Notes: generated by a model from the letters alone, not told the origin. A DNA stretch of 32,000 nucleotides from Trichodesmium erythraeum IMS101 (GCF_000014265.1 NC_008312.1:3330001-3362000), one strand, 5' to 3'. Shown: positions 2,955 through 19,564, counted from the first letter of the stretch. Numbers and translations: made by a program.

Positions 2955-3091
2955 ATAGCTTGTAGTATTGGGCTTAAGTTATTAGATAAAGTAGTTATAG
3001 AACAGCTCGCAGTAGATGGCTGCAGTTATTAGAAAAAGTAGTTATAAGATAGCTAGTAGTATTTTTTTTAGATATTAGAAAAACTAGTAGA
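2955..3091. repeat. About 2.5-3 copies of a ~47-bp direct repeat
   Basis: AGTTATTAGATAAAGTAGTTATAGAACAGCTCGCAGTAG (2977-3015) matches AGTTATTAGAAAAAGTAGTTATAAGATAGCTAGTAGTAT (3024-3062). Partial copies flank both. Read by eye. Confidence 0.6.
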
Positions 3092-3208
3092 GTTTTAGCC
3101 CGAAGATCCAGCATATTTCACCTGGATGAGGTTAAATTACTCCAAGTAATACACCTGTCTATTGTTGATAAATATTCTACAATTTATACAAAATAATGTT
3201 ATACTCTA

Positions 3209-3715
3209 ATGGCTGTTAAAATAGTGAATAATATGGTTTGTTACGTTAAAATAGATATTATTGAATCAGCGGAAGAACTAAAAGAAATATTATCTCGACA
3301 GACAGATATAAAGCTCAAGCAAAAAGTACAAGCATTATATTGGCTTAAAATAGGAGCAGTAAATACTATTGAAAATATATCAATATTATTAGGATGTCAT
3401 CGAACAACTGTATCACGATGGTTTAGTACATATAGAAAGTTGGGTATAGAAGGTTTATTGAAGAAGAAAAAAATTTTGGGTAGACCTAGAAAAATATCAC
3501 CTATGTTAGAAAAAAAACTTAGAGATGAGCTAAAAGATATAGAGAGTTTTAAGAGTTATAATGAAGTGCAAACATGGTTAAAAGCAATGTGGGATATTAA
3601 TCTGCCATACTCAACAGTACATCGGTATGTTTATTATAATTTAAATACTAAATTAAAAGGGTCACCTCCAATAAGTAGTCAACAAAATTCAACAGCAGTT
3701 GAGGACTCAAAATAA
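3209..3715 (+). pseudogene. IS630-family-like transposase remnant. Only the N-terminal HTH / winged-helix part is present, and no DDE domain follows.
   Basis: The residues ...ISILLGCHRTTVSRWFSTYRKLGIEGLLKKKKILGRPRKISP...YSTVHRYVYYNLNTKLKG resemble the orfA/HTH region of cyanobacterial IS630-type transposases (from memory). The ORF stops at 168 aa, and downstream frames are broken. No catalytic domain and no clear terminal inverted repeats were found. Confidence 0.55.
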
Positions 3716-5014
3716 AATATTTTAACTACTATCGAAGGTAATTGAAAAATTGAAAATAACGGGTAAGTAAATTTTGGAACAGAGTTAAGTTTTACCTAAC
3801 TATTTAACTATCAGCTATCAGCTATTGAATGCTTACCTAATTATTTATCTCTACTTTATATACTTACTAAATACTTAATAGGCTAAGTTTCTACTACAAA
3901 AAAAATTATTACTTATTTACTGTCAGGTTAGTTTTTCCTTCTATTGCCTACTAAATTATGTTTGAAAAATTCATAGCTTTTATAAAGACAAAAGAATGGC
4001 AACTTGATTCGATGCAAATAGCAGAAGTTTTATGGTTTGTGCACCAAGTTAGTGAACAAAAACAGGAAGAAAATAATTCTCAAAATTTAGTTTCAAGTAA
4101 TACGGAGGAGCTAGCTGAAAACTTTGATCAATCTTATGACTTTCAACTTTCAAAAACAGCTAGTATTCAACAACCAAAAAAAACGCCTACTAGGTCTTCG
4201 TCTTCTCAATATCCTTTAACTACTTCATCATCAAATAAATCTCAAAATACAGAAATTCAACCAACATCTTTGACTACTGAAAAATTGCCTATCAAATTAC
4301 CAGACATAGCAATTTTGCGTAATACTCTAGAATTAAGTCGCCTAAGTAGTCAACAAAATTCAACAGCAGTTGAGGACTCAAAATAAAATATTTTAACTAC
4401 TATCGAAGGTAATTGAAAAATTGAAAATAACGGGTAAGTAAATTTTGGAACAGAGTTAAGTTTTACCTAACTATTTAACTATCAGCTATCAGCTATTGAA
4501 TGCTTACCTAATTATTTATCTCTACTTTATATACTTACTAAATACTTAATAGGCTAAGTTTCTACTACAAAAAAAATTATTACTTATTTACTGTCAGGTT
4601 AGTTTTTCCTTCTATTGCCTACTAAATTATGTTTGAAAAATTCATAGCTTTTATAAAGACAAAAGAATGGCAACTTGATTCGATGCAAATAGCAGAGGTT
4701 TTATGGTTTGTGCACCAAGTTAGTGAACAAAAACAGGAAGAAAATAATTCTCAAAATTTAGTTTCAAGTAATACGGAGGAGCTAGCTGAAAACTTTGATC
4801 AATCTTATGACTTTCAACTTTCAAAAACAGCTAGTATTCAACAACCAAAAAAAACGCCTACTAGGTCTTCGTCTTCTCAATATCCTTTAACTACTTCATC
4901 ATCAAATAAATCTCAAAATACAGAAATTCAACCAACATCTTTGACTACTGAAAAATTGCCTATCAAATTACCAGACATAGCAATTTTGCGTAATACTCTA
5001 GAATTAAGTCGCCT
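3673..5014 (+). repeat. Perfect-register tandem duplication, 2 x 671 bp (copy 1 is 3673-4343, copy 2 is 4344-5014)
   Basis: By eye the two copies are identical apart from one substitution that I found (A at 4026 versus G at 4697, synonymous Glu). Each copy holds ~285 bp of IS-remnant/leader sequence plus the first ~386 nt of the large vWA gene. Confidence 0.95.
3958..4386 (+). pseudogene. Truncated duplicate of the N-terminus (about aa 1-129) of the 1911-aa vWA protein, fused to a 13-aa out-of-context tail. It may be expressed as a stand-alone N-terminal domain.
   Basis: Same leader, ATG and first 129 codons as the CDS at 4629. The reading frame then crosses the duplication junction (4343/4344) into IS-remnant sequence and ends with SSQQNSTAVEDSK*, the same tail as the ORF at 3209. 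Confidence 0.8.
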
Positions 5015-8000
5015 TATTAAACCCTTCAAACAAAAGGTAAACTCTCGAGTTGCTCAGGAATTAGATGTTAATGAAACTGCCAAAATAAGTGCAGAACTTA
5101 GTACCCTGAATTTTCCCCGTTATTTTCCAGTTTTAACTCCTAAAAAAGAACGTTGGTTAGATGTTGTTTTGCTCATAGAAGATAGTGATTCAATGATTCT
5201 TTGGCAGTCTTTATTGCCAGAAGTTAGAGATTTTCTAGAACATTTAGGAGCATTTCGAGATATCAAACTTTATCGCATAAAATGGGATAATAATTCAGAA
5301 AATTTACAAATTTATCCTTTTCATTCTCCTTCTCTGACTCTATCTCCTCAAGAATTAAATTCATCCGATCATAGACGGTTAATTTTGATGCTTAGTGATT
5401 GTATTTCCCTAGCTTGGATTAATCAGAAATTTATTAATATTCTTCAAAAATGGGCAACAAAAGAAAAGTTGACTATCCTCAATCCTTTTCCTGAAAGAAT
5501 GTGGGAAAATACAAATCTTTGTTATGCAATTAGACTGCGATTAGGAAATAATAAAAAGCAAAATTCGACTCAAAAATGGGATGCAATTCCTATTGAGTAT
5601 TGGCAAGAAAAATACCTTAATCAACAAACAGTTAAATTACCAATTCTAAATTTAGAACCAAAGTCAATGGCTGCTTGGGTTAATGTTATGGTAGGAAAAG
5701 GAATCAGTTGGTGTGCTGGTGCTGGGTTAGGTTTAGAATTGATGGGTCCAGAGCCAGAAGAAGAGGAAGAACCTCTCACTCCTAGAGAACAAATTAATAA
5801 TTTTTATGCCACTTTTTCCAAGGAAGCTTGGCAATTAATTCAATGGTTATCTGCTATTCCAATTAATCTTTCTACTATTCGTTTAATACAACGAGCTTTA
5901 TTACCAAAGTCGACTCAAATTAATGTCGCAGAAGTATTAATGGGAGGATTATTAAGTCCGGTTAAACCTTTTAATTCTTATCGTTTTCCTCATCAAATTG
6001 AGTTTGAATTTCAACCGGGAATTAGGGAGATATTTTTAGACCGTTTAGGAGGAAAAGAATTTTGTATTGGGGTTATTGGTCGTTTAACTGAAAAAATTGC
6101 TAGTCATTTTGGATATGAAACTATTCGAGAATTTGAAGCAATTCTATTAAATGAACCTTGGAATTTTCGGGATGATCAAGATATTAGATTAATTCACACT
6201 TTTGCGACTATATCTATCTCAACTCTTAGGCAATATGGAGATAAATATACTGATTATATTCCCAAGTTAGATAGAAGTCGCGCTCAGTTATATTTGATGT
6301 CTGAAGTTCCAGGAGAATCTATAAATTGGAGAGATTTTCTGGAAAAAGTCGCTCAAAAATATCGTTTAAGTTCTATTCAAAAAGAAATTTTAATTAATCT
6401 ATTTCCAAGTTCCCAAGAATTTCTTTCTATTTCTGAACTAGCTCAAAAACTTCTCAGTTCGGCTTCAGTTATTAAAGGTCGCTTAAATCATATTTTTCCT
6501 AAATTTGAAAGTAAAAATCCAGATTTATTTGCATCTCAAAAATATTCTCGACTAGAAGCTCTGCATTTATTTTTATCTTCTGAATATAAAAATTCATATA
6601 TTCCTCAAATTCTTGAAAATGATCAAATTGAGGAAAATTTACAAGACTTGAATTCTGAAGTTCCAGGAGAGTCTGTAAAATGGAGAGATTTTCTGGAAAA
6701 AGTCGCTCAAGAGTATGATTTAACTTCTATTCAAAAAGAAATTTTAATTAATCTATTTCCAAGTTCCCAAGAATTTCTTTCTATTTCTGAACTAGCTCAA
6801 AAACTTCTCAGTTCGGCTTCAGTTATTAAAGGTCGCTTAAATCATATTTTTCCTAAATTTGAAAATAAAAATCCAGATTTATTTGCATCTCAAAAATATT
6901 CTCGACTAGAAGCTCTGCATTTATTTTTATCTTCTGAATATGTAAATTCATATATTCCTCAAACTCTTGAAAATGATCAAATTGAGGAAAATTTACAAGA
7001 CTTGAATTCTGAAGTTCCAGGAGAGTCTGTAAAATGGAGAGATTTTCTGGAAAAAGTCGCTCAAGAGTATGATTTAACTTCTATTCAAAAAGAAATTTTA
7101 ATTAATCTATTTCCAAGTTCCCAAGAATTTCTTTCTATTTCTGAACTAGCTCAAAAACTTCTCAGTTCGGCTTCAGTTATTAAAGGTCGCTTAAATCATA
7201 TTTTTCCTAAATTTGAAAGTAAAAATCCAGATTTATTTGCATCTCAAAAATATTCTCGACTAGAAGCTCTGCATTTATTTTTATCTTCTGAATATAAAAA
7301 TTCATATATTCCTCAAATTCTTGAAAATGATCAAATTGAGGAAAATTTACAAGACTTGAATTCTGAAGTTCCAGGAGAGTCTGTAAAATGGAGAGATTTT
7401 CTGGAAAAAGTCGCTCAAGAGTATGATTTAACTTCTATTCAAAAAGAAATTTTAATTAATCTATTTCCAAGTTCCCAAGAATTTCTTTCTATTTCTGAAC
7501 TAGCTCAAAAACTTCTCAGTTCGGCTTCAGTTATTAAAGGTCGCTTAAATCATATTTTTCCTAAATTTGAAAATAAAAATCCAGATTTATTTGCATCTCA
7601 AAAATATTCTCGACTAGAAGCTCTGCATTTATTTTTATCTTCTGAATATGTAAATTCATATATTCCTCAAACTCTTGAAAATGATCAAATTGAGGAAAAT
7701 TTACAAGACTTGAATTCTGAAGTTCCAGGAGAGTCTGTAAAATGGAGAGATTTTCTGGAAAAAGTCGCTCAAGAGTATGATTTAACTTCTATTCAAAAAG
7801 AAATTTTAATTAATCTATTTCCAAGTTCCCAAGAATTTCTTTCTATTTCTGAACTAGCTCAAAAACTTCTCAGTTCGGCTTCAGTTATTAAAGGTCGCTT
7901 AAATCATATTTTTCCTAAATTTGAAAGTAAAAATCCAGATTTATTTGCATCTCAAAAATATTCTCGACTAGAAGCTCTGCATTTATTTTTATCTTCTGAA

Positions 8001-10364
8001 TATAAAAATTCATATATTCCTCAAATTCTTGAAAATGATCAAATTGAGGAAAATTTACAAGACTTGAATTCTGAAGTTCCAGGAGAGTCTGTAAAATGGA
8101 GAGATTTTCTGGAAAAAGTCGCTCAAAAATATCGTTTAAGTTCTAGTCAAAAAGAAATTTTAATTAATCTATTTCCAAGTTCCCAAGAATTTCTTTCTAT
8201 TTCTGAACTAGCTCAAAAACTGTCTCTTTCAACTTCAGCCATTAGGGGTCGCTTAACTAATATCTTTCGTAAATTTGAAAGTAAAAATCCAGATTTATTT
8301 GCATCTCAAAAATATTCTCGACTAGAAGCTCTGCATTTATTTTTATCTTCTGAATATAAAAATTCATATATTCCTCAAATTCTTGAAAATGATCAAATTG
8401 AGGAAAATTTACAAGACTTGAATTCTGAGGTTCCAGGAGAGTCTGTAAAATGGAGAGATTTTCTGGAAAAAGTCGCTCAAGAGTATGATTTAACTTCTAT
8501 TCAAAAAGAAATTTTAATTAATCTATTTCCAAGTTCCCAAGAATTTCTTTCTATTTCTCAAGCTGCTCAAAAACTGTCTCTTTCAACTTCAGCCATTAGG
8601 GGTCGCTTAACTAATATCTTTCGTAAATTTGAAAGTAAAAATCCAGATTTATTTGCATCTCAAAAATATTCTCGACTAGAAGCTCTGCATTTATTTTTAT
8701 CTTCTGAATATAAAAATTCATATATTCCTCAAATTCTTGAAAATGATCAAATTGAGGAAAATTTACAAGACTTGAATTCTGAAGTTCCAGGAGAGTCTGT
8801 AAAATGGAGAGATTTTCTGGAAAAAGTCGCTCAAGAGTATGATTTAAATTCTATTCAAAAAGAAATTTTAATTAATCTATTTCCAAGTTCCCAAGAATTT
8901 CTTTCTATTTCTGAACTAGCTCAAAAACTTCTCAGTTCGGCTTCAGTTATTAAAGGTCGCTTAAATCATATTTTTCCTAAATTTGAAAGTAAAAATCCAG
9001 ATTTATTTGCATCTCAAAAATATTCTCGACTAGAAGCTCTGCATTTATTTTTATCTTCTGAATATGTAAATTCATATATTCCTCAAATTCTTGAAAATGA
9101 TCAAATTGAGGAAAATTTACAAGACTTGAATTCTGAGGTTCCAGGAGAGTCTGTAAAATGGAGAGATTTTCTGGAAAAAGTCGCTCAAGAGTATGATTTA
9201 ACTTCTATTCAAAAAGAAATTTTAATTAATCTATTTCCAAGTTCCCAAGAATTTCTTTCTATTTCTCAAGCTGCTCAAAAACTGTCTCTTTCAACTTCAG
9301 CCATTAGGGGTCGCTTAACTAATATCTTTCGTAAATTTGAGAATAAAAACCCAGGGTTATTTGAATCTAGAAAAGGCTCTAAATTAGAAGCTCTACAGTC
9401 ATTTTTATTTTCTCAATATGTAAATTTAGATATTCCTCAAACTATTAAAAATAATCAGTTTCAAATTGGGGAAAAATTACAACATTGGAGTTTTAAAACC
9501 CCTACTGTTAACCGACGTGGAAATATTATCAACACCAGAACTTATACTGCTTCTTATTTCATCGAAATTCTTGGGCCTGATATTAATTTAGAAATGGTAG
9601 CTATCCCTGGTGGTACTTTTACCATGGGTTCTCCTGAAAGTGAAAAGTATAGCGAAGATAATGAACGGCCCCAACATCAGGTAACTGTTCCTTCCTTTTT
9701 TATGGGCAAATATCCAGTAACTCAAGGACAGTGGAAAGCGATCGCCTCTCGAACAGACATAAAAGTAGAAGGAGACCTAGACCCAGAGCCATCATATTTT
9801 AAAGAACCATACGAAAATATAGATAGATGGCACAGACCAGTGGAGCGGGTTAGTTGGAACCAAGCAGTAGAATTTTGTCAAAGACTATCAAAACTAACAG
9901 GAAGAAAGTACAGGTTGCCGAGTGAAGCAGAATGGGAATATGCTTGTCGTGCAGGAACGAGTACACCATTCTACTTTGGAGAAACCATAACACCTGAGTT
10001 AGCTAACTATGATGGGAAGTATACTTACAGCGATGGGCCAAAAGGAGAATATAGAGGGCAAACAACTCCTGTAGGTAAATTTCCACCAAATGCTTTTGGT
10101 TTATATGATATGCATGGAAACGTTCATGAATGGTGTGCTGACGACAGGCATGATAACTATGTAGGAGCTCCTACAGATGGAAGTGCTTGGATTAATAGTA
10201 ATACACATAGTGATACTAAAAGTAGAAAAATCCTTCGTAGCGGCTCCTGGTACGGCTATCCTTGGTGGTGTCGCTCTGGGGACCGCAACAGCTATTTCTC
10301 CGTCGAGGCGAACAACATCATTTTTGGTTTTCGTCTTGTGAGTGTCCCCCCCCAGGACTTTTGA
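4629..10364 (+). CDS. Giant multidomain protein. Order of parts: N-terminal alpha-helical domain, S/T/Q-rich linker, vWA-like domain, helical middle region, 9 tandem HTH modules, C-terminal FGE-sulfatase (SUMF1/C-type-lectin fold) domain.
   Basis: 1911-aa uninterrupted ORF. The vWA evidence is a MIDAS-like VVLLIEDSDSM (DSDSM at 5181-5195), then LILMLSDC and LTILNPFPERMW strands. The FGE-sulfatase evidence from ~9589 is GGTFTMGS, RPVERVSWNQAVEFCQRL, YRLPSEAEWEYACRAG, FGLYDMHGNVHEWC and RSGSW. Each repeat module contains a sigma70-region-4/LuxR-like HTH (LTSIQKEILINLF...LSISELAQKL..S.SVIKGRLNHIFPKF). Confidence 0.9.
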   Translation: MFEKFIAFIKTKEWQLDSMQIAEVLWFVHQVSEQKQEENNSQNLVSSNTEELAENFDQSYDFQLSKTASIQQPKKTPTRSSSSQYPLTTSSSNKSQNTEIQPTSLTTEKLPIKLPDIAILRNTLELSRLIKPFKQKVNSRVAQELDVNETAKISAELSTLNFPRYFPVLTPKKERWLDVVLLIEDSDSMILWQSLLPEVRDFLEHLGAFRDIKLYRIKWDNNSENLQIYPFHSPSLTLSPQELNSSDHRRLILMLSDCISLAWINQKFINILQKWATKEKLTILNPFPERMWENTNLCYAIRLRLGNNKKQNSTQKWDAIPIEYWQEKYLNQQTVKLPILNLEPKSMAAWVNVMVGKGISWCAGAGLGLELMGPEPEEEEEPLTPREQINNFYATFSKEAWQLIQWLSAIPINLSTIRLIQRALLPKSTQINVAEVLMGGLLSPVKPFNSYRFPHQIEFEFQPGIREIFLDRLGGKEFCIGVIGRLTEKIASHFGYETIREFEAILLNEPWNFRDDQDIRLIHTFATISISTLRQYGDKYTDYIPKLDRSRAQLYLMSEVPGESINWRDFLEKVAQKYRLSSIQKEILINLFPSSQEFLSISELAQKLLSSASVIKGRLNHIFPKFESKNPDLFASQKYSRLEALHLFLSSEYKNSYIPQILENDQIEENLQDLNSEVPGESVKWRDFLEKVAQEYDLTSIQKEILINLFPSSQEFLSISELAQKLLSSASVIKGRLNHIFPKFENKNPDLFASQKYSRLEALHLFLSSEYVNSYIPQTLENDQIEENLQDLNSEVPGESVKWRDFLEKVAQEYDLTSIQKEILINLFPSSQEFLSISELAQKLLSSASVIKGRLNHIFPKFESKNPDLFASQKYSRLEALHLFLSSEYKNSYIPQILENDQIEENLQDLNSEVPGESVKWRDFLEKVAQEYDLTSIQKEILINLFPSSQEFLSISELAQKLLSSASVIKGRLNHIFPKFENKNPDLFASQKYSRLEALHLFLSSEYVNSYIPQTLENDQIEENLQDLNSEVPGESVKWRDFLEKVAQEYDLTSIQKEILINLFPSSQEFLSISELAQKLLSSASVIKGRLNHIFPKFESKNPDLFASQKYSRLEALHLFLSSEYKNSYIPQILENDQIEENLQDLNSEVPGESVKWRDFLEKVAQKYRLSSSQKEILINLFPSSQEFLSISELAQKLSLSTSAIRGRLTNIFRKFESKNPDLFASQKYSRLEALHLFLSSEYKNSYIPQILENDQIEENLQDLNSEVPGESVKWRDFLEKVAQEYDLTSIQKEILINLFPSSQEFLSISQAAQKLSLSTSAIRGRLTNIFRKFESKNPDLFASQKYSRLEALHLFLSSEYKNSYIPQILENDQIEENLQDLNSEVPGESVKWRDFLEKVAQEYDLNSIQKEILINLFPSSQEFLSISELAQKLLSSASVIKGRLNHIFPKFESKNPDLFASQKYSRLEALHLFLSSEYVNSYIPQILENDQIEENLQDLNSEVPGESVKWRDFLEKVAQEYDLTSIQKEILINLFPSSQEFLSISQAAQKLSLSTSAIRGRLTNIFRKFENKNPGLFESRKGSKLEALQSFLFSQYVNLDIPQTIKNNQFQIGEKLQHWSFKTPTVNRRGNIINTRTYTASYFIEILGPDINLEMVAIPGGTFTMGSPESEKYSEDNERPQHQVTVPSFFMGKYPVTQGQWKAIASRTDIKVEGDLDPEPSYFKEPYENIDRWHRPVERVSWNQAVEFCQRLSKLTGRKYRLPSEAEWEYACRAGTSTPFYFGETITPELANYDGKYTYSDGPKGEYRGQTTPVGKFPPNAFGLYDMHGNVHEWCADDRHDNYVGAPTDGSAWINSNTHSDTKSRKILRSGSWYGYPWWCRSGDRNSYFSVEANNIIFGFRLVSVPPQDF
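6300..9485 (+). repeat. Nine in-frame tandem copies of a 354-bp (118-aa) coding unit
   Basis: Unit starts (TCTGAAGTTCCAGGAGA) fall at 6300, 6654, 7008, 7362, 7716, 8070, 8424, 8778 and 9132. Copies 2+3 and 4+5 form an apparently identical 708-bp super-repeat. Copies 6, 7 and 9 carry an alternative recognition-helix cassette (KLSLSTSAIRGRLTNIFRKF instead of KLLSSASVIKGRLNHIFPKF). Copy 9 diverges in its second half. Confidence 0.95.
10236..10361 (+). other. Candidate DGR variable region (VR) at the extreme C-terminus of the FGE-sulfatase domain
   Basis: It encodes RSGSWYGYPWWCRSGDRNSYFSVEANNIIFGFRLVSVPPQDF. This aligns with the RGGSW-NNN..N-CRSANRN-NN...-NNN-GFR(V/L)V layout of C-type-lectin-fold DGR targets (from memory). 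The segment is conspicuously A-poor (about 18 A in ~125 nt by hand count) and GC-rich within an AT-rich gene. It ends with a C8 run (10346-10353) just before the stop. Confidence 0.5.
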
Positions 10365-10469
10365 ATAGCCCTTTGCCCTCTTGCCCTCTTGCCCTATTTA
10401 GTCTCGCCAAAGGCTAGTCGAAATTTTTGAGCTTATGTAGTATTGTTGTAATATGTTGCGTGCTATATT

Positions 10470-10604
10470 CCAACTTAATAGAACAAAGGAGTCTGCTATA
10501 CAGAAATTTTCCTCAACAGAAAACCACAGTAAGGACGCCCTACATGCAAAGTCCCTACATGTAACCTCCCTACATTCCGAAAAAACTAATTATTCATTTC
10601 AAAC
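10470..10604 (+). repeat. Copy 1 of a ~120-135-nt dispersed/duplicated intergenic element
   Basis: Shares CCAACTTAA...ATACAGAAA..TCCT...AACCTCCCTA(C/A)ATTC(C/G)GAAAAAACTAATTATTCATTT(C/T)AAAC with 10865-10982. The last ~42 nt differ at 3 positions. Confidence 0.75.
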
Positions 10605-10809
10605 TCTAAACTCTCAACAAAATAGCTGAGTATTGGCCTCAAAGCTAACTCTTTATTCTAAACTGTTCATTCTAAATTCTGAAAAAAACTTCTGAGTCCT
10701 CGTTTTTGCCTTATCTGCGATCGCCTGATAACCCTCTAACCCTTTTCTCCTTTCCCCTTTTGGCCTTTAGCCATAATTTCTTTTTCCTAAAACTTCCCCC
10801 CTTGAGGGC

Positions 10810-10838
10810 TTGACATTTTTTAAAATCAATGATATAAT
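10810..10838 (+). promoter_or_regulatory. Consensus sigma70-type promoter (TTGACA, 17-nt spacer, TATAAT) with no plus-strand ORF downstream
   Basis: TTGACA at 10810-10815, a 17-nt spacer, and TATAAT at 10833-10838. A transcript from it would run through repeat copy 2 and antisense into the 3' end of the minus-strand ORF 10972-11700. Confidence 0.45.
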
Positions 10839-10864
10839 TATAACAGCTTATTACTTAATAAATC

Positions 10865-10982
10865 CCAACTTAACCCCGTAAAGAGGCCTCCCATACAGAA
10901 AAACTCCTGCATAGTAGACCTCTTTATAGATGTTCCATTTAACCTCCCTAAATTCGGAAAAAACTAATTATTCATTTTAAAC
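10865..10982 (+). repeat. Copy 2 of the ~120-135-nt element
   Basis: See copy 1. This copy overlaps the stop codon region of the minus-strand ORF that ends at 10972. Confidence 0.75.
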
Positions 10983-11622
10983 AGCTTATTTTCAAATCTT
11001 GAGGAAACTTCTCAATTAAAGAACAATCAAAATAATAATTACACCAAAACTCAGACACCTCTAATAACATAGGAACAGAAGCAGGAATTAACCCACTACC
11101 ATAACTTGGCTCATAACGTACAACATATACCATAGCCAACTTATAAGCCCAGCTAGAAAAATCTTGTTCAACAAAACAGCGCAAAGCATAATCTAACTTA
11201 AGTAAATAACCACTACGAAAAAAACTTACAGTACTCCAATTAACCCTACCATAATGATTACTTTGTAAACCATCAATTCTTCTCAACAACTCCCAGAAAG
11301 AGTGCTTTTTTTCAGCAGTAGGATCTGCTAAATAATCCTCCATTTGAGCAACAGTATCAGAAATCAAATTAAGGCGAATTGACCATTCTTCTTGAGTAAA
11401 TTCTTTATAACGTTTAACTTCATTCATCTCCTGCTGTAATTTTTTAGCAAGATGAAAAGCAAATAATTCTGCTGCTGTTTTATCTTGAATTAGACTTTTA
11501 AGACTTGTTAAACGAGTAGTAGGTATAGCAAAAATAAAATCTCCATTATTAAGTTGAGATACTACTTGAAGCCATTTTTTAATTTTGTTAGCTATTGCTT
11601 TATCAGTACATTTTTGTTTCAT
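10972..11622 (-). CDS. Hypothetical protein
   Basis: The ORF track gives 10972-11700 with a TTG start. The first ATG (MKQKCTDK...) is at 11622, so the start is ambiguous. I recognise no motif. Confidence 0.55.
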   Translation of the reverse strand: MKQKCTDKAIANKIKKWLQVVSQLNNGDFIFAIPTTRLTSLKSLIQDKTAAELFAFHLAKKLQQEMNEVKRYKEFTQEEWSIRLNLISDTVAQMEDYLADPTAEKKHSFWELLRRIDGLQSNHYGRVNWSTVSFFRSGYLLKLDYALRCFVEQDFSSWAYKLAMVYVVRYEPSYGSGLIPASVPMLLEVSEFWCNYYFDCSLIEKFPQDLKISCLK

Positions 11623-11785
11623 CAGAATATATTTTAATCTGCTTAAATAATAGTCATAAAAATATGCACAAATTAAAAGCCAGAAATTATCCCTGACCAA
11701 GTTTTAACACTGAACTATCTGTGCCTAATATTCAACTACTACAATTGTTTTATCGAAGTTTTCTAAGCATAAACAGGAATCTTTA

Positions 11786-12769
11786 TTAAGCCCCACCATT
11801 GTAAGTTCCATGCACCTTACCATCTAACCAAAGTTCTTGTAAATGTCCCAATACCTCTTCAGAAAGATCAGGCAACATAGTCACAGAAGCATTATCGCGA
11901 ATATGTTCAGGGCTAGATGAACCTGGAATAACCGAAGTCACCGTTTTATTGTTCAAAATATATTTTAAGCCTATAGTCCACATTGGTAAGTTAGTATTTT
12001 TGACGATCGGTTTAATATGATCCACCATTTCCATTTGTTTAGCCACCCAATCATGAGAAGTCCATAAGCCCCGCCAGTCTCCTTCAGGAAACTTATGAGA
12101 AGATGTCCAATTACTCACCAATGCACCAGAACTAAACGGACAGCGTGCTATTATCCCCACCTGATGTTTTTTAGCCATCGGCAAGAGAGTATATTCTGGC
12201 TCCTGTTCCAAAACATTATAAACAGCCATTACCACATCTATCCGTCCTGCTTCGATATGACTATTCGCTTCAGAAGCACGCCGGTCCCCCACTGATACCC
12301 CGATAGCTCTAATTTTTCCCTGTTCTTTTAGCTTGACCATCGCCTCATACCATTCCGTGCGATCGCCCCAAGCCACATTCCAAGTATGCAGAAATAAAAT
12401 ATCAATGCATTCTCGCCGTAAATTTCTAAGTGTGGTCTCGCAACATTTATTTATCCAAGCAGGGGAAAAATAATCATCAATATTATCTTGAGGTTTTGGT
12501 GACCATTCATCACATTGAGGAGGTATTTTACTAGAAATAACCACAGATGGATATCTCTGTAATACCTTTCCCACAACCTGTTCACAATAGCCATTTCCGT
12601 ATTCTAAAGCCGTATCAAAATAATCAATACCCGCCTCTATTGCCACCTCGATCCCCCGACAATATTCAGCCTCCGTTTTTTTCCCCCACACATCCCCTGA
12701 CATTTGCCAAGTACCCAAGCCAACCTCACTAATTTTGATATCCGTATTTCCCAACTGACGTTTTTTCAT
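11786..12769 (-). CDS. Aldo/keto reductase family oxidoreductase
   Basis: MKKRQLGNTDIKISEVGLGTWQM..., DTALEYGNG, LFLHTW and GVS..... are typical AKR motifs. The track start at 12781 is TTG, so I prefer the ATG at 12769. Confidence 0.88.
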   Translation of the reverse strand: MKKRQLGNTDIKISEVGLGTWQMSGDVWGKKTEAEYCRGIEVAIEAGIDYFDTALEYGNGYCEQVVGKVLQRYPSVVISSKIPPQCDEWSPKPQDNIDDYFSPAWINKCCETTLRNLRRECIDILFLHTWNVAWGDRTEWYEAMVKLKEQGKIRAIGVSVGDRRASEANSHIEAGRIDVVMAVYNVLEQEPEYTLLPMAKKHQVGIIARCPFSSGALVSNWTSSHKFPEGDWRGLWTSHDWVAKQMEMVDHIKPIVKNTNLPMWTIGLKYILNNKTVTSVIPGSSSPEHIRDNASVTMLPDLSEEVLGHLQELWLDGKVHGTYNGGA

Positions 12770-13070
12770 ATTTACTGGCAAATTTTGAAGAAAAAAAAGC
12801 TCGACTAAAATTATCAGGGAACAAAAAGCAATTATTAAACCAGTTTTACGGTTATTAAAAAAGATCAGCTTATTATAACCTGCTATAGTCCCAGTCTTGA
12901 GTCATCAGGATTTTCTGTTTGTTTATTATTTAGCTTAAGCTTACTCAAGACTTACCCAGAAAAGCAACTCTAATATTTACCTCCTACAGATAGGGTCTTA
13001 TCCAGTAGTTATTTATATCCTATCTCATAGTAGAATTATTTACATATTTTATCATTATTCTTTAATTAAG

Positions 13071-13733
13071 TCAAGACTGAGAATTACTTAACTCATTATA
13101 TTTTTCACAAATTGCTTTTACCACTAACTGTTGTACCTGATAACAACTAACTACCTGAGAGAGTGGTAGACGCCTTAGTAACCACCAACCTTTTAAATTA
13201 CAGTCCTCTTTGTGGGGATCGAAATGACCTTTTAACCAGCCATCCTCAGTTTCCTCATCCATTAATTGTAACCGAAAGTGATTCCAAATATTTTCAGCTA
13301 CATCCTCCAACCTCTCCGAAGGGTTTTCTACTTCTGGCTTCGTAACAGCTAACCAACATTCAGGCTCTTTTGTATCTGGGACATGAGGATCATTGCATCC
13401 TATCCAATTCCAAACAAACGCTATATAATCTAATCGTTCTATGGGACAATCTTCTATAGCCGTATCTGCGGGGATCTTCTGGGAATTTACATAAAAACGA
13501 CCATACCATTGTGGAACCCAAAGATATATAGGATAAACCTTTTTCTCATAAATATCATAATCTTGGGAAATCGCAAAAAGTCCATTACGAATGGGTTCTA
13601 ATTTTACTCCATATTCCCGCGCCTTAAATTGTGCATCTAAGAATTGGTAAAGTTCCTTAATCTGTTTTTGATATCCTACGACTTGCCAATAGCTATCTAT
13701 TAAATTATTTAATTCATCTGTTTTAATCAGCAT
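13071..13733 (-). CDS. Hypothetical protein (acidic, Trp-rich)
   Basis: 220-aa ORF with an ATG start and coding-like composition. No recognisable motif. Confidence 0.6.
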   Translation of the reverse strand: MLIKTDELNNLIDSYWQVVGYQKQIKELYQFLDAQFKAREYGVKLEPIRNGLFAISQDYDIYEKKVYPIYLWVPQWYGRFYVNSQKIPADTAIEDCPIERLDYIAFVWNWIGCNDPHVPDTKEPECWLAVTKPEVENPSERLEDVAENIWNHFRLQLMDEETEDGWLKGHFDPHKEDCNLKGWWLLRRLPLSQVVSCYQVQQLVVKAICEKYNELSNSQS

Positions 13734-13974
13734 ATTAATCCTGGATAATATATAGTTAATTTAGCATTTCTATATCACCCAGACGAGACAATTTATTACA
13801 GAATTATCCCACAAGATACATGAGACTCTGCACAATTTTCCCATTTACCAATTCATAATTTTTGACTTGATTTTGCCCAATCAATTACATTCTTTAAGTA
13901 ACTATATTATAACTAGCCTCAGCAATAACTTAATTAATTAATCAGAATTATATAGGGCGAACCAATTAAAAAAG

Positions 13975-14047
13975 AGCCGGTGAGGAGACTCGAACTCCTG
14001 ACCGTTCGATTACAAGTCGAGTGCTCTACCAACTGAGCTACACCGGC
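13975..14047 (-). tRNA. tRNA-Thr (anticodon UGU), CCA not encoded
   Basis: The reverse complement is GCCGGTGTAGCTCAGTTGGTAGAGCACTCGACTTGTAATCGAACGGTCAGGAGTTCGAGTCTCCTCACCGGCT, which folds as a cloverleaf. The acceptor is GCCGGTG/CACCGGC, the D arm is GCTC/GAGC, the anticodon loop is CTTGTAA, and the T arm is AGGAG-TTCGAGT-CTCCT. Confidence 0.95.
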
Positions 14048-14105
14048 AACGTTTTTTAATATAGCAAAAGTAGAGCTATTTTGGCAACCCCTATTTCATT
14101 TTTAA

Positions 14106-14486
14106 TTATATTTTTTTTAAATAGCTTAATAAATCGGCCATTTCTTGCTCACTAGGTTGAAATTGCGGCATAGGTGGTGTTTGGCCACTAACTACTTGTT
14201 TAATAATTGCCAAGTCCGACTTATGTTGGGATACTCCCTCTAACCTTGGTCCAACCTGACTATCCATAGATGATTTGTGACAACCTGCACAATTGATCTG
14301 AAAAATATCTTCACCTTTTATGGGGTCTGCCTCAAGAGACAATACATCTTTGCTATAAGGATCAGACACTTGAGATGGCTCAACTCCTAGAAATATAAAT
14401 AAGATTACTAGAAGAACAGCAGAACCAACTAAGCTGATCCACTGCAGCGGGACTTCTTTTTTGATTTCAGCAAGTTGGTTATCCAA
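14106..14486 (-). CDS. Membrane-anchored c-type cytochrome (cytochrome cM-like?)
   Basis: Has an N-terminal hydrophobic helix (WISLVGSAVLLVILFIFLGV), a heme-binding CAGCH motif and a distal Met region PPMPQF. The start codon is TTG, so the start is uncertain. Confidence 0.8.
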   Translation of the reverse strand: MDNQLAEIKKEVPLQWISLVGSAVLLVILFIFLGVEPSQVSDPYSKDVLSLEADPIKGEDIFQINCAGCHKSSMDSQVGPRLEGVSQHKSDLAIIKQVVSGQTPPMPQFQPSEQEMADLLSYLKKI

Positions 14487-15064
14487 AATCTTTTAGAGCT
14501 CAAAAATTATTTACAGAAAAATTTAAAGTTTAATATTGATTTGTACATCTTAACAGATGTAATATTTTCAGTGGTAATACTTTGATTGAAAGTTAAATAT
14601 TTTTTGAAAGTCCTAAGTCTATAACAATATTCTTCTAAAATAGCTTTATATTTTTATGTTTAAGGAAGAAAAAGACAGTTAGTTTTCTCAAGTGCTAACT
14701 TTATGAGAGATTAGTACAAGTTGATGCCGAGCTAGAATCAAAACTCTAATGTTCTCTGCTCATACTGTAGTGCCAAGTTCTCTTTCCCCGGTTATCTAAA
14801 GTTTTTATCCTAGCAAACTATTTTTCCTCACCTCTGTCTTTGTTGAATTTTCTTGAATTGTTTAATGCCCAAAATGTAGAGGTTAGAACCTGCCTCCCCC
14901 AAGAGAAATATTGTCACAACAATAATGTTTACCTGAAAAAAAGAACTAGACTCACCATCTCAAGACAAAGTACAGGTTTTGATCAAATTGATCGTTAGTT
15001 TAACTTTAATCCACTATATTATTGATCAATAACAAACAAAAATTTCATCAAAGGAGTTAGCTTC

Positions 15065-15178
15065 GTGGTAGAACCATTACTTTCTGGAGTAGTACTAGGT
15101 CTAATCCTCGTAACATTGTCAGGACTATTTTTTGCAGCTTACCAACAATACAAGCGAGGTAACCAATTAAATGGTTAA
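15065..15178 (+). CDS. petG: Cytochrome b6-f complex subunit 5 (PetG)
   Basis: Not in the ORF track because it is only 37 aa. GTG start at 15065, preceded by AAGGAG. The translation (M)[36 protein letters not shown] matches the conserved PetG sequence. Confidence 0.9.
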
Positions 15179-15600
15179 ATATTAAGGAGCAATAGTTAAC
15201 CAAAACCAAAAATACAAAACTTTTTAAAGTTACTAATATGTCATTATGTAGCTTTAAAAAGCTTACCTTAAAAAATTTAGTTAGCCCTTGACAAAAGCTC
15301 TATATTGAGGTATTGAAATCACAATTATAACTTGTTTAAAAAGGAAAAACTAAAAGCTATTACTTATATATGACTATTTCTAAGTTAAGGGACATAAAAG
15401 AAAGGAAACCATTCTTGTTACAGTGCTGGGAGTGAGTAAGCAACATACTCCAAATTATCAACCAGTGTAATATGGGTTTTGTCCTCAAAGACCAAGACAA
15501 TACATGTAAAAACCATCACTTTTATCCCTCAGTGATAGTATACATATTCAAGACGTAGAGATGGAAAGAAAGTTAAGTTTTTCCATAAATTTATCTATGC

Positions 15601-16149
15601 TCAGTTCTGAAAAAGACGAAAGAAAGTCAAAGCTGTATTGCCATAGACTTTCTGCCGACAAATTTCTAAATTGGGAATAGATTTAACTGGCCATATTTTG
15701 GGACAATGTTCTACTGCTAGCTCGCTGGTTAGCCCTAGAAGTTGATATTGAGCGATCGCCTCCAATACTGGTTGATATAAATTACTAGTATAGGGGGGAT
15801 CAAAATAAATCAAATCAAACTTCTGGCCCACTAAAACTTTTAACCGTTTTAAAACATCTCCCCGCAAAACCTGAAATTCCTGGGATGAACTAGCCACCAG
15901 TTGCCAATTTTGGCGAATTAAAGTACAAGCAGGGCTATATTGTTCCATAGCGATCGCTATGGATGCTCCTCTACATAAAGCTTCTGCTCCCATAGAACCT
16001 ACACCAGCACATATATCGAGCCATCGACATCCATCTATATTATTTTGCCAGATATTAAAGACTGCTTCTCGCACCTTAGCCAAAGTTGGTCGAATTTCCA
16101 TTCCTGGTAAAGTTTTTAACTGACGGTTACCATATATTCTTAAATTCAT
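15601..16149 (-). CDS. rsmD: 16S rRNA (guanine966-N2)-methyltransferase RsmD
   Basis: 182 aa. Contains LDICAGVGSMGAEAL (SAM motif I) and the DPPY catalytic motif. Size and layout are typical of RsmD. Confidence 0.85.
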   Translation of the reverse strand: MNLRIYGNRQLKTLPGMEIRPTLAKVREAVFNIWQNNIDGCRWLDICAGVGSMGAEALCRGASIAIAMEQYSPACTLIRQNWQLVASSSQEFQVLRGDVLKRLKVLVGQKFDLIYFDPPYTSNLYQPVLEAIAQYQLLGLTSELAVEHCPKIWPVKSIPNLEICRQKVYGNTALTFFRLFQN

Positions 16150-16523
16150 ATCAAAAATTCACCTCAAAAATTCATCTCAAAGACTTATCTTAAAAAAAAA
16201 AGAAGTACCAGGATATCAAATTAAAAATTAAATTAAAAATTAAATTAAAAATAATAGTCATTTCACTATAGCTTGCTAATTAAATATCAAGCCATTTACT
16301 GATATTTACAAATACCTTTTTAAAAGTCTAATAAAGTGTAATTTTTTCAGTACCTAAAGCTAATACATATTAATATCAACAGCAGAATAATTGCCCAAAA
16401 ATCAAGGGCAAATATATCTGACTACTTTCTAATTAATTCCCATTTAGACCTAAGTAAGTTCCATGAAATGTTCCCACCTATTTCTGAGTTCTAACTTCAC
16501 TGCTCAGACTTTTTCAGCAAGCC

Positions 16524-17168
16524 TTAACTAGCTAAAGCCAAATTTTTAGGGATAACTTTACTAACAAAATTTGACAAAATTTTTAATCCGGCAGTAGAAG
16601 ATTTTTCTGGGTGAAATTGTACTGCTATTAAATTATCTTTTCCTACTGCTGCAGTAACAGTTTGATGACCATGGGTGACAGTTGCTGCTGTAACTTGAGA
16701 GTCTGTAGGATCAACATAATAAGAATGAACAAAATATACCCAGGGTTGAGAACCTATTTCACTCCACAAAAGATGTTCTGGTTGAGTAAATTGTAATTTA
16801 TTCCAACCCATTTGTGGAATTGTCAGGCCAGGTTCAGATTTAAACCGACATACTTTTCCAGCAAATATTCCTAAGCCTGGTTCTTGACCTTCTTCGCTAC
16901 TTTCAAATAATATTTGTAAACCTAAACATATACCTAAAAATGGTTTTCCAGAAGCAATAACTTGTTTAATAGGTATTTCTAAGTTGCGTGTTCTTAAATG
17001 TTGTACTGCTGGATCGAAAGACCCTACCCCTGGTAAAATCACTGCATCAGCCTTGTCTATTTCTATTGAAGAATCTGTAATTTTTGGAGTTGCTCCTGCT
17101 TTTTCTAAGCCTTTACAAACGGAGTGCAAGTTACCCATATCGTAATCTATAACTGCAATAGTTGACAT
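16524..17168 (-). CDS. hisH: Imidazole glycerol phosphate synthase, glutamine amidotransferase subunit HisH
   Basis: Contains IAVIDYDMGNLHSV, LPGVGSF, GICLGLQ (catalytic Cys), YFVHSY and VQFHPEKS. Confidence 0.92.
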   Translation of the reverse strand: MSTIAVIDYDMGNLHSVCKGLEKAGATPKITDSSIEIDKADAVILPGVGSFDPAVQHLRTRNLEIPIKQVIASGKPFLGICLGLQILFESSEEGQEPGLGIFAGKVCRFKSEPGLTIPQMGWNKLQFTQPEHLLWSEIGSQPWVYFVHSYYVDPTDSQVTAATVTHGHQTVTAAVGKDNLIAVQFHPEKSSTAGLKILSNFVSKVIPKNLALAS

Positions 17169-18502
17169 ATATTCATTATCCTAATTTTATATTTAGTAAC
17201 TTTAATATTATATGTAAAAAATTACCATAATTGAAAGGATTTACACTTTTTATAATTTGGTGATAATTCACAGATAAAATTAAAGTTTTACTCATATAAT
17301 TTAATATTTAGAAACCTAAAAATAAATGTAATTATTCTGAGAAATTATTAAATATGATATTTTCCCAAAAATCAACTAATTACTGTCTAAATTTCATAAA
17401 AAAGTTGGCTATTGATTAATAAATTGTGATTTCTTAATCAAATAGCACAAATTAATCTCAATAGAATTATTGATTCTAGGATGAAATAAATATTCCTGAC
17501 TGGTCCTCACTTAATCAGTAAAATTACTAATAAATTAATGAGAGGTCAAATGTCAAGAAAAAATAAAAGTTAGCAAAAAAAAATTAATCTGAGAACTATT
17601 GACAAAAATTTTATATCTTTGCTATTATTCAAATTAATAAAGTATAAAATTTTAGAACCTATAGTCATTAGTTGGCTGCTGTCTCATCCATGGTAGATAT
17701 ATCAAGTTTATTTGTGTATCCAATCTTTGTAAGTAATCTCTAGCATAAATATATAATTATTTATTTAGGTAAATAGTTCAAAAGAATAATAATTTTTAAG
17801 ATAGTTATTTCCAACTATGATATGAGCAAATAAGTTTTTAAGTTTCTACTTAACTAAAAATATCATAATTCTTTATCTAAAAGAAAAGTAACTACAAATG
17901 AGATGAAAGCAATAAGTGTAATATATGGCAATCTACCATTGATAAGACATTAGCTTAGCTGAGGAAACTTAATATAATGTTTGCTCAGTTTGAGTGGTTC
18001 TAATTTGATAAAATTTTATGCCGAAAAACATACCAATATTATTAGTAATTTTGGAGTGATATTACAGCTAATTTCGGGCATAAGATGTACGGCTGTATTT
18101 AGAGAAAATTATGCATTGCGGGAATCTTGCTAGGGTGAGGGTATTCATAAAGTTGAAATATCCTGTATTTGTCACTCTCAATATATATTTTTTTGGTAAT
18201 TGTCTATCAAGAGATGGGAGTTTTTTTTATTTATACACTATTAAAAATAGATATCTAATATTCCCATATGTAAGTATTCAGTTATTAGCAGTCAGCTCTC
18301 AGTTTTTCCCAGCATAACCTTGTAAAAAACATGGATAAAAGTAATAAATTACTAAGTTTAGCTGATCGTCTTTTTCGTGTTGGACTTTTAATTTTTTTTG
18401 GAGGCTCATTCTTCCTTTTAGCTGATAGCTGATAGTTGATAGCTGAATACTTACCCAATATAGATAAATATAAATAAATATCAATAAATTGAAAATTAGC
18501 AA

Positions 18503-19204: not shown

Positions 19205-19564
19205 TTGAATAAGGAAAAACTAATTTGGATAATTTCCTAGATTCATTTTTTTGAAGAGCTTAATTTTTTATTTGGGCAAGTCAGCCAATAAATTTTTATT
19301 TAAAAAGATTTAACTTAAAAAAAAGCTGATAACTCAATACTAATTGATATAAATAATTTTGAAATCTTAACTTTTGAGTTTCAACTTAAAATTACCAAAG
19401 AAATAAAGTTAATCTTTTACTCTTTCAACAGAATAAAAAAAACGAAATTTGGGATTTTTAGGTCTCCCTATTACTGGAAGTACTGTTGCCCTACGCGATA
19501 TGAAAAGCCCAGTTCCTCCTCCAGGAAGCTAACCAATAAATGATAATTGATACTGATAACTGAA

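Follow-up and report, generated by a model that had tools for sequence, protein, structure and literature searches.

Ternary systems built from a VMAP protein, a MoxR-type ATPase and a vWA-type subunit are predicted conflict systems of multicellular bacteria; to our knowledge none has been dissected experimentally, and it is debated which subunit senses and which acts. The VMAP ternary system was described by Kaur et al. 2020 (PMC7159879), who reported that cyanobacterial vWA subunits typically end in an FGE-sulfatase (FGS) domain, which is often diversified by a diversity-generating retroelement (DGR), and who named helix-turn-helix (HTH) and GUN4 among the C-terminal domains of such proteins. 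In the cleavage-release model proposed there (and summarised in PMC10907252), the VMAP peptidase cuts the vWA subunit and frees its C-terminal domains. Doré et al. 2024 (PMC10907252) assign the role of sensor to the lectin-fold domain and that of effector to the VMAP peptidase. The gene analyzed here belongs to a system of this type in Trichodesmium erythraeum IMS101, and lies in a stretch of 32,000 nucleotides (GCF_000014265.1, NC_008312.1:3330001-3362000; hereafter the window). Its product, the vWA-type subunit, contains nine near-identical copies of a small module, probably of HTH type, where each complete ortholog contains one, and the array has apparently been built by recombination.

The identity of the system follows from gene content and order. 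The window opens within the 3' part of a VMAP gene (1-991, + strand), whose reading frame is already open at the window start, is stop-free from 2 to 991, and encodes a VMAP-C domain (Pfam PF20028, 1.5e-20); full-length VMAP orthologs combine CHAT with VMAP-C in 710 aa (L003) or 699 aa (L020). Next comes a gene for a MoxR-type AAA+ ATPase (1996-2943, +; Pfam AAA_5 4e-9, bpMoxR 1.9e-5), the Microcystis p1FD4 ortholog of which is annotated as a MoxR family ATPase. The array gene itself (4629-10364, +) is a single open reading frame (ORF) of 1911 aa with no overlapping ORF of at least 100 aa. It encodes an N-terminal region of SAV_2336 type, the vWA component (4629-6299, +; NCBIfam SAV_2336_NTERM, NF041121, aa 18-495, 1.1e-97), then the nine modules, and finally an N-terminal extension that is all-beta and leads into an FGE-sulfatase domain of C-type lectin fold (9486-10364, +; Pfam PF03781, aa 1655-1904, 9.2e-55). 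Because VMAP-C, MoxR and SAV_2336_NTERM plus FGE-sulfatase stand in a conserved order, which recurs in Okeania, in a second Trichodesmium species and in Microcystis, we identify its product as the vWA-type subunit in a ternary conflict system of the known VMAP/MoxR/vWA kind, with the order CHAT-VMAP, MoxR, vWA-HTH-FGS.

An earlier, sequence-only reading of this DNA had placed the modules between a vWA domain and an FGE-sulfatase domain. The second of these flanks holds; the vWA label was reproduced neither by Pfam, which gives no VWA match at E<=1 in the array protein, nor by searches of PDB sequences with the N-terminal region, where neither a single-sequence nor a profile search found a vWA structure. 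Family name, gene context and literature are the grounds for keeping the label here, and an EDSDSM stretch, read from the translation, lies at the expected position of the DxSxS metal-site motif. No signal peptide or membrane segment is evident in the translation of the array protein.

The array occupies 6300-9485 (+; aa 558-1619). Over 6300-9457, Tandem Repeats Finder detects 8.9 copies of a 354-bp period (95% matches, 0% indels, score 5613), and cutting the gene at 6300 + n*354 yields nine in-frame units of 118 aa, each with a LuxR/sigma-4-like module and each matched by the module hidden Markov model (HMM) at 124-129 bits. The tenth 354-bp frame is already part of the FGE-sulfatase region and is unrelated to the units (about 250 mismatches). 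Throughout the 1062 array codons there are neither stops nor indels. Units 1 to 8 differ pairwise at 0-29 DNA positions, and unit 9 differs from the other units at 47-76. Unit 2 is identical to unit 4, and unit 3 to unit 5 (0 mismatches in both comparisons); 6654-7361 is accordingly repeated exactly at 7362-8069, and the two copies of this 708-bp super-repeat together span 6654-8069 (+). Both the nine in-frame units and the identity of the pairs 2+3 and 4+5, read earlier from the sequence, are thus borne out by the ORF, by Tandem Repeats Finder and by the unit-by-unit comparison.

All 34 columns that vary among units 1 to 8 are grouped in a few blocks. Columns 58-77 encode KYRLSS in units 1 and 6 and EYDLTS in the other units, and columns 136-141 encode SQAA in units 7 and 9 and SELA elsewhere. 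Columns 153-200 hold one of two recognition-helix cassettes, A (LLSSASVIKGRLNHIFPKF) in units 1-5 and 8 and B (SLSTSAIRGRLTNIFRKF) in units 6, 7 and 9; cassette A, and with it six of the nine units, has a proline in the recognition helix. The tail varies at columns 212, 289-290 and 311, with the alternatives ESKN..YKNSYIPQIL and ENKN..YVNSYIPQTL. The recognition-helix and tail pairs had been named before, and the KYRLSS/EYDLTS and SQAA/SELA pairs are additions to them. The units are recombinant mosaics of these cassettes. DGR-like mutagenesis was considered as the source of the cassettes and rejected, since inspection of the columns shows no adenine-specific pattern in the A/B differences. Each unit comprises a five-helix module at about residues 5-100 and then an acidic linker of about 25 aa; this exposed unit end, ENDQIEENLQDLNSEVPGES, is the same in every unit. 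The isoelectric point (pI) of the HTH cores is 8.1-10.3, and that of the linker 4.05.

Relatives of the module are few. An exhaustive phmmer search over 1.84 billion representative proteins returned only 13 hits and no other module array. Four of the hits are single modules linked to vWA proteins; most of the others form the N-terminus of a STAND protein of NACHT or NB-ARC/TPR type in Nostocales or are short stand-alone proteins of ~100 aa, and in both Nostocales contexts that were checked an NB-ARC-TPR gene has such a short module gene immediately upstream. A genome scan identified nine orthologous loci. The module HMM matches nine times in the window and exactly once per complete ortholog (Okeania, Crocosphaera, Microcystis, Cyanothece and p1FD4). 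The module is absent from the 120 other FGS proteins of the homolog search; a phage collection contained no match to it, and among plasmids only Microcystis p1FD4 did. Peptide patterns of the units retrieved nothing from genome and metagenome collections, which do not include the source genome. A word-indexed homolog search with units 8+9 found no match because the relatives share no 5-residue words with them. Tandem HTH arrays comparable to this one were not found in the literature. The view that no comparable nine-fold HTH protein is known, already expressed in the sequence-only reading, therefore stands after the ortholog comparison and the search of the representatives.

The only one of the 13 hits with several matching stretches, P0008 (L011 1-1750, GCA_029233985.1), was set aside as a probable false relative, having only a 28-aa N-terminal helix (GESVKW..FL) in common with the module and an unrelated context. 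It is a partial protein of 582 aa at a contig end, with six repeats of ~97 aa that each start NGESVKW..FL..A; the remainder of these repeats is not HTH-like, and the neighborhood includes DsbD and TraG-like genes.

The locus in Okeania sp. SIO3B5 (L002) is collinear with the window except in copy number, with the vWA region, one module and the FGS domain. The N-terminal region is 59% identical in amino acids to Microcystis WP_233271454.1 and 81% identical in DNA to Okeania, and a GUN4 domain has been added in the Microcystis and some Crocosphaera orthologs. Within the array, the features ESINW and LSS of unit 1 recur in the opening module of the second Trichodesmium species. Unit 9 (9132-9485, +), the most ancestral-like, is Okeania-like in its 3' half and recognition helix and is the nearest of the units to the Okeania module, with 80.2% DNA identity. 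Cassette B, found in units 6, 7 and 9, is closer to the outgroup than cassette A. As judged from these comparisons, the ends of the array keep ancestral sequence, unit 1 in its 5' part and unit 9 in its 3' part. Ancestral ends and cassettes arranged in this way are what a tandem duplication through unequal exchange, with stepwise growth afterwards, is expected to leave, and the array is a lineage-specific, recombination-driven amplification of a conserved ancestral single-copy module.

The age of this amplification can be read from synonymous divergence (dS), which falls into layers: unit 9 stands ~0.25 away from the other units, the cassette types are ~0.1 apart, and inside the super-repeat the value is zero. 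The oldest layer compares with a dS of 0.21 between the N-terminal region and that of the other Trichodesmium species. The array had been taken for a very recent expansion or the product of ongoing gene conversion; the mosaics and the identical super-repeats agree with recombination or gene conversion, and recency applies to part of the array only, given the older layer at dS ~0.25.

Independent assemblies bear on both the reality and the variability of the array. A contig of a metagenome-assembled genome (MAG), GBRTRLIN201 (L018), is 99.68% identical to window 8495-20364; it begins within the array, and almost three units precede its FGS domain. Between contig and window there are 38 differences, very unevenly spread, with 29 in 991 bp of array, nine in the FGS domain and none in the 10 kb downstream. 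Of the array differences, 25 of 29 lie in columns 136-200, the HTH motif, and they include a CCT (Pro) codon that no window unit has. The nine FGS differences fall within 172 bp (9758-9929), outside the variable-region stretch at the gene's 3' end, which is identical in the two strains; the cluster resembles a short conversion tract from one of many paralogous FGS genes. Twenty contigs from independent assemblies encode an identical MoxR protein, and four are long enough to reach the array. Three of these stop inside unit 1, at columns 104, 126 and 233, and two of the contigs ending in unit 1 differ from the window by a single mismatch over about 4.5 kb, a stretch that takes in cassette A of unit 1. 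The fourth, scaffold L021, contains no Ns and extends from the N-terminal region over two cassette-B modules and into the FGS domain; it differs from the window by one mismatch in 4.4 kb upstream and by 54 differences in the array, including a KYRLTS combination not found in the window. L021 was rejected as proof of a two-copy allele, because a homogeneous array that had collapsed and was read through once would yield such a scaffold too. The short-read sets behind these assemblies are GCA_018457135.1 for L018 and L020, ERZ23497920 for L021, and ERZ529327 and ERZ529326 for L022 and L023. The contig of the second Trichodesmium species (L003, 86% identical) stops 34 residues into the first module.

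From these data it is clear that a multi-copy array exists in nature, that array content differs between populations with near-identical flanks, and that no part of the region changes faster than the array. Copy-number polymorphism had been suspected from the sequence; variation is confirmed for array content, and for copy number as such it is likely but short of proof, as short-read contigs break or may collapse in the array. Each short-read assembly or MAG examined (L003, L018, L020-L029) cuts the gene short at the array, and in most there is a further break at a heptamer array farther upstream. Because the assemblies truncate there, the gene is publicly annotated as separate partial proteins, one labeled SAV_2336 N-terminal and the other formylglycine-generating enzyme family, and because public annotations hold such split partial proteins the first homolog searches were empty. 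The case is a warning that short-read assemblies and MAGs systematically truncate the array gene.

The assignment of the module to a fold comes from family-level comparison. Scored over the whole protein, Sigma70_r4 (PF04545) reaches 35.4 bits against a cutoff of 24.1, a sum over the units, and GerE (PF00196) reaches 18.2 bits against a cutoff of 23.5. Single cassette-B units score 15-17 bits with Sigma70_r4 (E 0.0045-0.017), under the cutoff of 24.1. A distant family member, P0011, passes the cutoffs for both Sigma70_r4_2 (PF08281; 29.5 versus 25.7) and GerE (24.1 versus 23.5). A profile of 16 family modules (alignment A1), searched against PDB sequences, matched ChrA 4yn8 (2.4e-4), VpsT 3kln (3.1e-4) and 4wt0 (4.9e-3), with ComA, VraR and GerE next; LuxR-type domains make up ten of the first 12 matches, with significance that is marginal but consistent. 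Single-unit phmmer against the PDB gave nothing significant. In the PDB alignments, the recognition helix retains K/R and R where the K and H of the LuxR-type 'TVKTH' motif align.

Structure prediction leads to the same neighborhood. AlphaFold2 with the family alignment gave a model with pLDDT 91.0 and pTM 0.81 and helices at residues 2-16, 21-30, 40-46, 51-68 and 80-96; single-sequence AlphaFold of two units reached a pLDDT of 59.8, too low to use. Helices 2-5 of the model correspond to the four helices of LuxR, with the HTH in 3-4, and they are preceded by an extra N-terminal helix with a conserved W-x-D-F-L. When Foldseek was run with this model, sigma-70 region 4, VpsT, NarL and ComA led the matches at a root-mean-square deviation (rmsd) of 2.5-3.2 A; for NarL 1je8 the rmsd is 2.6 A over 74 columns, with a target TM of 0.72. 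The evidence that the module is a divergent HTH of LuxR/sigma-70-region-4 type is good but not conclusive. That reading, first made from the sequence, is upheld by the family profile and the predicted structure, with an HTH-type fold and sigma-4/LuxR neighbors; single units stay below Pfam thresholds. The module represents a small family, restricted to cyanobacteria and common to vWA subunits and STAND NTPases, that has no dedicated Pfam model, and no member matched one in the scans.

Selective constraint was estimated from the ratio of nonsynonymous to synonymous divergence (dN/dS), with small samples and no confidence intervals. Among single-copy orthologs the ratio for the module is 0.31-0.46, and between the units of the window it is 0.44-0.84. 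For the flanks of the same gene in the comparison with Okeania it is 0.35 in the N-terminal region and 0.22 in the FGS domain. The values suggest that in the T. erythraeum lineage the module has been evolving in a relaxed or diversifying manner.

The explanation that we consider somewhat probable overall is that of a VMAP-system vWA subunit whose single HTH module has been amplified to nine by recombination. The ancestral layout was one divergent HTH module between the vWA region and a C-terminal lectin-fold (FGS) ligand-binding domain. A 354-bp segment consisting of module and linker was then duplicated in tandem in the T. erythraeum lineage, and unequal recombination or replication slippage carried the array stepwise to nine copies. 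Later gene conversion and crossing-over among units account for the mosaics and the exact 708-bp super-repeat, and such reshuffling continues between strains. Of this account, the anatomy, the family context, the descent from a single copy, the order of events and the differences between strains are observed, and the fold is predicted with good support. The product may be pictured as cytoplasmic 'beads on a string' of ~217 kDa, in which nine basic-to-neutral helical HTH cores would alternate with acidic linkers, and in which the nine modules would lie between a vWA-MoxR hub and the lectin-fold ligand-binding domain.

What the modules do is a separate matter, and here our reading is more tentative. 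In the reading that we prefer, they may be a nucleic-acid-binding output or tether of the sensor subunit, whose multiplication would raise avidity or reach. This is suggested because the module family adjoins NTPase switches at the position of an output domain, because the recognition helix keeps K/R and R at the K and H positions of 'TVKTH', and because both within- and between-strain differences concentrate on the HTH motif. Predicted DNA binding by the modules is nevertheless weakly supported, and so is any benefit from having nine copies.

Several observations weigh against the amplified-HTH explanation or against a role of the array in binding. The array as a whole is acidic, with a pI of 5.06. 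No single unit scores above a Pfam threshold; a cassette-A unit, of which the array has six, gives no HTH match at E<=1 in Pfam; and every Foldseek E-value exceeds 0.1. No DNA target is known for the predicted HTH modules. Between the window units and the Okeania module dN/dS is 0.76-0.88, and the array is less constrained than the rest of the protein, so that the expansion may be partly tolerated rather than selected. An insertion and a 671-bp duplication upstream of the array gene, together with the lack of a nearby DGR, could mean that the system is decaying. Finally, the copy number of nine rests on a single assembly.

The most probable alternative, although we think it unlikely, is that the array is a passenger, amplified in a genome prone to tandem duplication and neutral or slightly harmful, with the frame kept open only because the FGS domain is needed and the extra modules degenerating. 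The raised dN/dS of the module beside constrained flanks would be expected from such a process, as would the proline gained in the recognition helix and the want of an HTH score in six of the nine units. An expanded heptamer array and a tandem duplication of 671 bp, which has left a truncated gene copy, are found at the same locus, and T. erythraeum is known for long tandem arrays (PMC4143802). Degeneration sits poorly, however, with 1062 array codons free of stops and indels and with a dN/dS below 1 throughout, and the differences concentrate on the HTH motif rather than being evenly spread. Furthermore, the oldest layer of the array is about as old as the split between the Trichodesmium species, and the contig of the other species breaks at the first module, which argues that a multi-copy state has probably persisted.

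A second possibility, somewhat less likely again, keeps a function for the array and dispenses with DNA binding, which would have been lost; the modules would serve as a protein-binding adaptor or as a flexible stalk between the lectin-fold sensor and the vWA-MoxR hub. Such a role would suit the acidity of the linkers and of the array as a whole. Sigma-4/LuxR-type domains do make protein contacts, and the fold matches include the complexes of WhiB7 and of phage G1 ORF67 with sigma-A region 4. Adaptor domains recur in the ternary systems (PMC7159879), and the module family is found at the N-termini of STAND NTPases, where adaptor domains also occur. Against this, the recognition helix has conserved basic residues and the HTH core is basic. 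In addition, effector-associated adaptors pair with the same domain in a neighboring gene, and no such pairing was found in the window or in loci L001-L010, over whose six-frame translations the module HMM matches the vWA gene alone.

More doubtful is the proposal, made by analogy with PRDM9 and TAL proteins, that the array is a recombination-tuned multivalent DNA-recognition device, in which the cassettes would differ in specificity and strains would shuffle their order and number. By the same improbable reading, each module would bind nucleic acid, and shuffling would alter where the vWA-MoxR-CHAT system is tethered or what it turns on. Were it true, recombination of an HTH array would be a second mode of diversification beside the retroelement-driven diversification of the lectin fold in relatives.

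Two further alternatives are very unlikely. One holds that the array is a store of releasable effectors, in which a CHAT protease would cut the acidic linkers and a single activation would free up to nine HTH monomers; the partner VMAP does have a CHAT (caspase-like) domain, cleavage and release were proposed in PMC7159879 (summarised in PMC10907252), and each unit ends in the same exposed linker ENDQIEENLQDLNSEVPGES, but the idea is purely inferential, no cleavage motif is known for the CHAT protease, in the other published model (PMC10907252) sensing falls to the FGS domain and the effector is the VMAP protease, and the orthologs manage with one module. The other, a misassembly in which the nine-unit layout and its 708-bp super-repeat are false and the true number of units is lower or higher, draws on the difficulty of assembling tandem repeats with identical 708-bp blocks, on the break of every short-read assembly at the array and on the two-unit scaffold L021, and it is hard to accept for an array that is perfectly in frame without indels, whose ordered mosaic with ancestral ends is not expected from random misjoining, whose multi-copy state is independently needed to explain the contig breaks of at least four other assemblies and the nearly three units of L018, and for which L021, with combinations absent from the window, represents a different haplotype and not a correction.

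Recombinational amplification of one HTH module within a ternary-system subunit is the explanation preferred here, and the DNA around the array gene shows that other tandem repeats have formed nearby. Between the VMAP and MoxR genes lies an array of AAACCTA-type heptamers with an interspersed ~50-bp element (1073-2003, no strand assigned), for which Tandem Repeats Finder gives a period of 7, 114.6 copies and higher-order periods of 113-176 bp. The ~50-bp element (…cctaaaactcATGAGTAAaaagaacaaattttgttaattttt), present in five to seven copies, repeats the MoxR start-codon region (…cctaaaacttATGAGTAAttgg at 1996), and its copies create mini-ORFs of 8 codons (MSKKNKFC*) upstream of the real MoxR start. 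Short-read contigs from many samples begin right after the heptamer array. At 28817-28861 are heptamers of the CAGGT(G/T)T type, reverse-complement relatives of those upstream of MoxR, which suggests that the repeats form a dispersed family and are not specific to one locus. The other Trichodesmium species (L003) has 24 heptamers at the upstream position, and Okeania (L002) has none. The speculation that the HTH array reads these MoxR-upstream repeats found no support: heptamers of the same kind occur elsewhere, they are fewer in the other Trichodesmium and absent in Okeania, and nothing links them to the protein. The expansion of both arrays in this lineage is better attributed to a common tendency to tandem duplication.

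The interval between the MoxR and vWA genes has also been enlarged. An insertion of ~1.5 kb (3000-4546), missing from both L003 and L002, may detach the vWA gene from the MoxR operon. It contains an ORF of 168 aa (3209-3715, +) with a homeodomain-like HTH of transposase N-terminal type (Pfam HTH_32 9.5e-11, HTH_23 7.4e-9), which lacks a catalytic part and is present in contigs L021-L023. Overlapping its end is a tandem duplication of 671 bp (3672-5014, +; copies 3672-4343 and 4343-5014) that is 99.85% identical by self-BLAST and reaches from the 3' end of the HTH ORF across the intergenic region to codon 129 of the vWA gene. A truncated duplicate of the vWA gene, an ORF of 142 aa (3958-4386), is the result ahead of the intact gene. 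The duplication is found in L020, L022 and L023 as well and is not private to the window assembly.

At its other end the gene has the features of a DGR target, namely a C-terminal C-type-lectin/FGE-sulfatase domain with a variable-region stretch at the 3' end. The last ~160 bp (10203-10364) correspond to the DGR variable region of orthologs, and DNA similarity to both Okeania FGS genes ends at 10202, ~160 bp before the stop codon. Avd, a DGR reverse transcriptase (RT) and a template repeat (TR) matching the gene's 3' end adjoin the orthologs in L001, L005, L006 and L010 (Microcystis, Crocosphaera). The 32-kb window contains no TR-like match, no DGR RT and no Avd; a DGR within it was considered and rejected, as the RT that is present is of retron type. 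The T. erythraeum DGR is reported to act in trans on at least 12 FGS genes (PMC4143802), and the array gene may be a remote trans target of it. In Microcystis aeruginosa FD4 the ternary system is plasmid-borne (p1FD4, L001), with a TIR-domain gene ahead of it and a complete DGR (Avd, RT, template repeat) following it, together with a stand-alone FGS gene that has a further copy of the variable region.

Elsewhere in the window are a 488-aa RT (19547-21010) whose best match is retron type XIII (PADLOC 3.9e-190), a gene for DNA phosphorothioation-associated protein 4 (25872-26336; TIGR04062, 4.7e-64) and one for a PbeC/DndD-like SMC-type ATPase (29060-31132; PADLOC PbeC, 1052.7 bits). With a retron, a dnd-associated gene and a PbeC/DndD-like ATPase beside the ternary system, the window looks like a defense island. 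A 15-bp unit (CCCTACATGCAAACT-like) is repeated 2.5 times at 10538-10575, about 175 bp past the stop codon of the array gene, and BLAST detects a 47-bp repeat at about 10558-10604 and 10936-10982. An Rfam scan of the window found only a tRNA (13975-14047).

The locus amounts to a natural experiment: in a nitrogen fixer of ecological importance, the copy number of one small module has risen to nine while the remainder of the protein is conserved, and the array is almost the only part of the region in which near-identical strains differ. Should the modules bind DNA, a bacterial HTH array would be evolving in the manner of eukaryotic zinc-finger or TAL arrays, which would also point to the role of the vWA subunit; we know of no earlier bacterial example. 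If they do not, it is still a clear case of fast intragenic domain amplification in the repeat-rich Trichodesmium genome.

Comparison with the VMAP ternary systems (PMC7159879, PMC10907252) shows the same three components in the same order, and likewise a filamentous, colony-forming cyanobacterium as host. The locus differs in that no described member has a tandem HTH array, and in that an insertion and the 671-bp duplication part the MoxR and vWA genes. Most cyanobacterial VMAP relatives, and four of the orthologous loci, have a DGR, whereas the window has none (RT, Avd or TR) within its 32 kb. The Microcystis p1FD4 and Okeania orthologs agree with the array gene in the position of the module and in the FGS end, and contain one module in place of nine; Microcystis and some Crocosphaera orthologs differ further in an added GUN4 domain and an adjoining DGR. 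The N-terminal domain of the Nostocales NB-ARC-TPR/NACHT STAND proteins is homologous over the whole five-helix module, at 25-37% identity (alignment A1), and there too the module stands beside an NTPase switch, at the usual position of an output domain. In those proteins, however, it is present in one copy, N-terminal or in a split upstream gene, its partner is a STAND NTPase, and there is no FGS domain in the examples examined.

More distant comparisons are with LuxR/GerE (NarL/FixJ-type) domains and sigma-70 region 4, which have the same four-helix core with the HTH in helices 2-3 and the shared pattern L-T-x-x-E/Q...S-x-x-E-I/A-A...S-x-x-A/T-V/I-K/R-x-R/H-L...K-F/L. LuxR-type HTH domains usually bind DNA as a dimer on repeated half-sites. 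Unlike them, the module has the extra N-terminal helix (W-x-D-F-L) and longer loops before the HTH and before the last helix, it comes without a receiver or ligand domain, and it is arrayed nine times. The zinc-finger arrays of PRDM9 and KRAB proteins and the repeats of TAL effectors consist of near-identical DNA-binding modules that evolve by unequal recombination. By analogy, the units here are tandem and near-identical, their differences concentrate in what would be the ligand-contacting part, and their content differs between close relatives; the fold is unrelated, however, the units are much larger (118 aa), they vary by a few linked cassettes and not by independent changes, and there is no evidence that they read successive DNA sites. 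A second analogy is with surface repeats of the Rib/alpha-C type, in which whole folded domains are likewise repeated with identity at the DNA level and changed in number and content by recombination. Those proteins are secreted and anchored in the cell wall, where the repeats act in display or immune evasion, whereas the array protein belongs to an intracellular NTPase-based system. The T. erythraeum locus thus represents a known type of system, and its array is a new, lineage-specific and fast-evolving architectural variant of that type.

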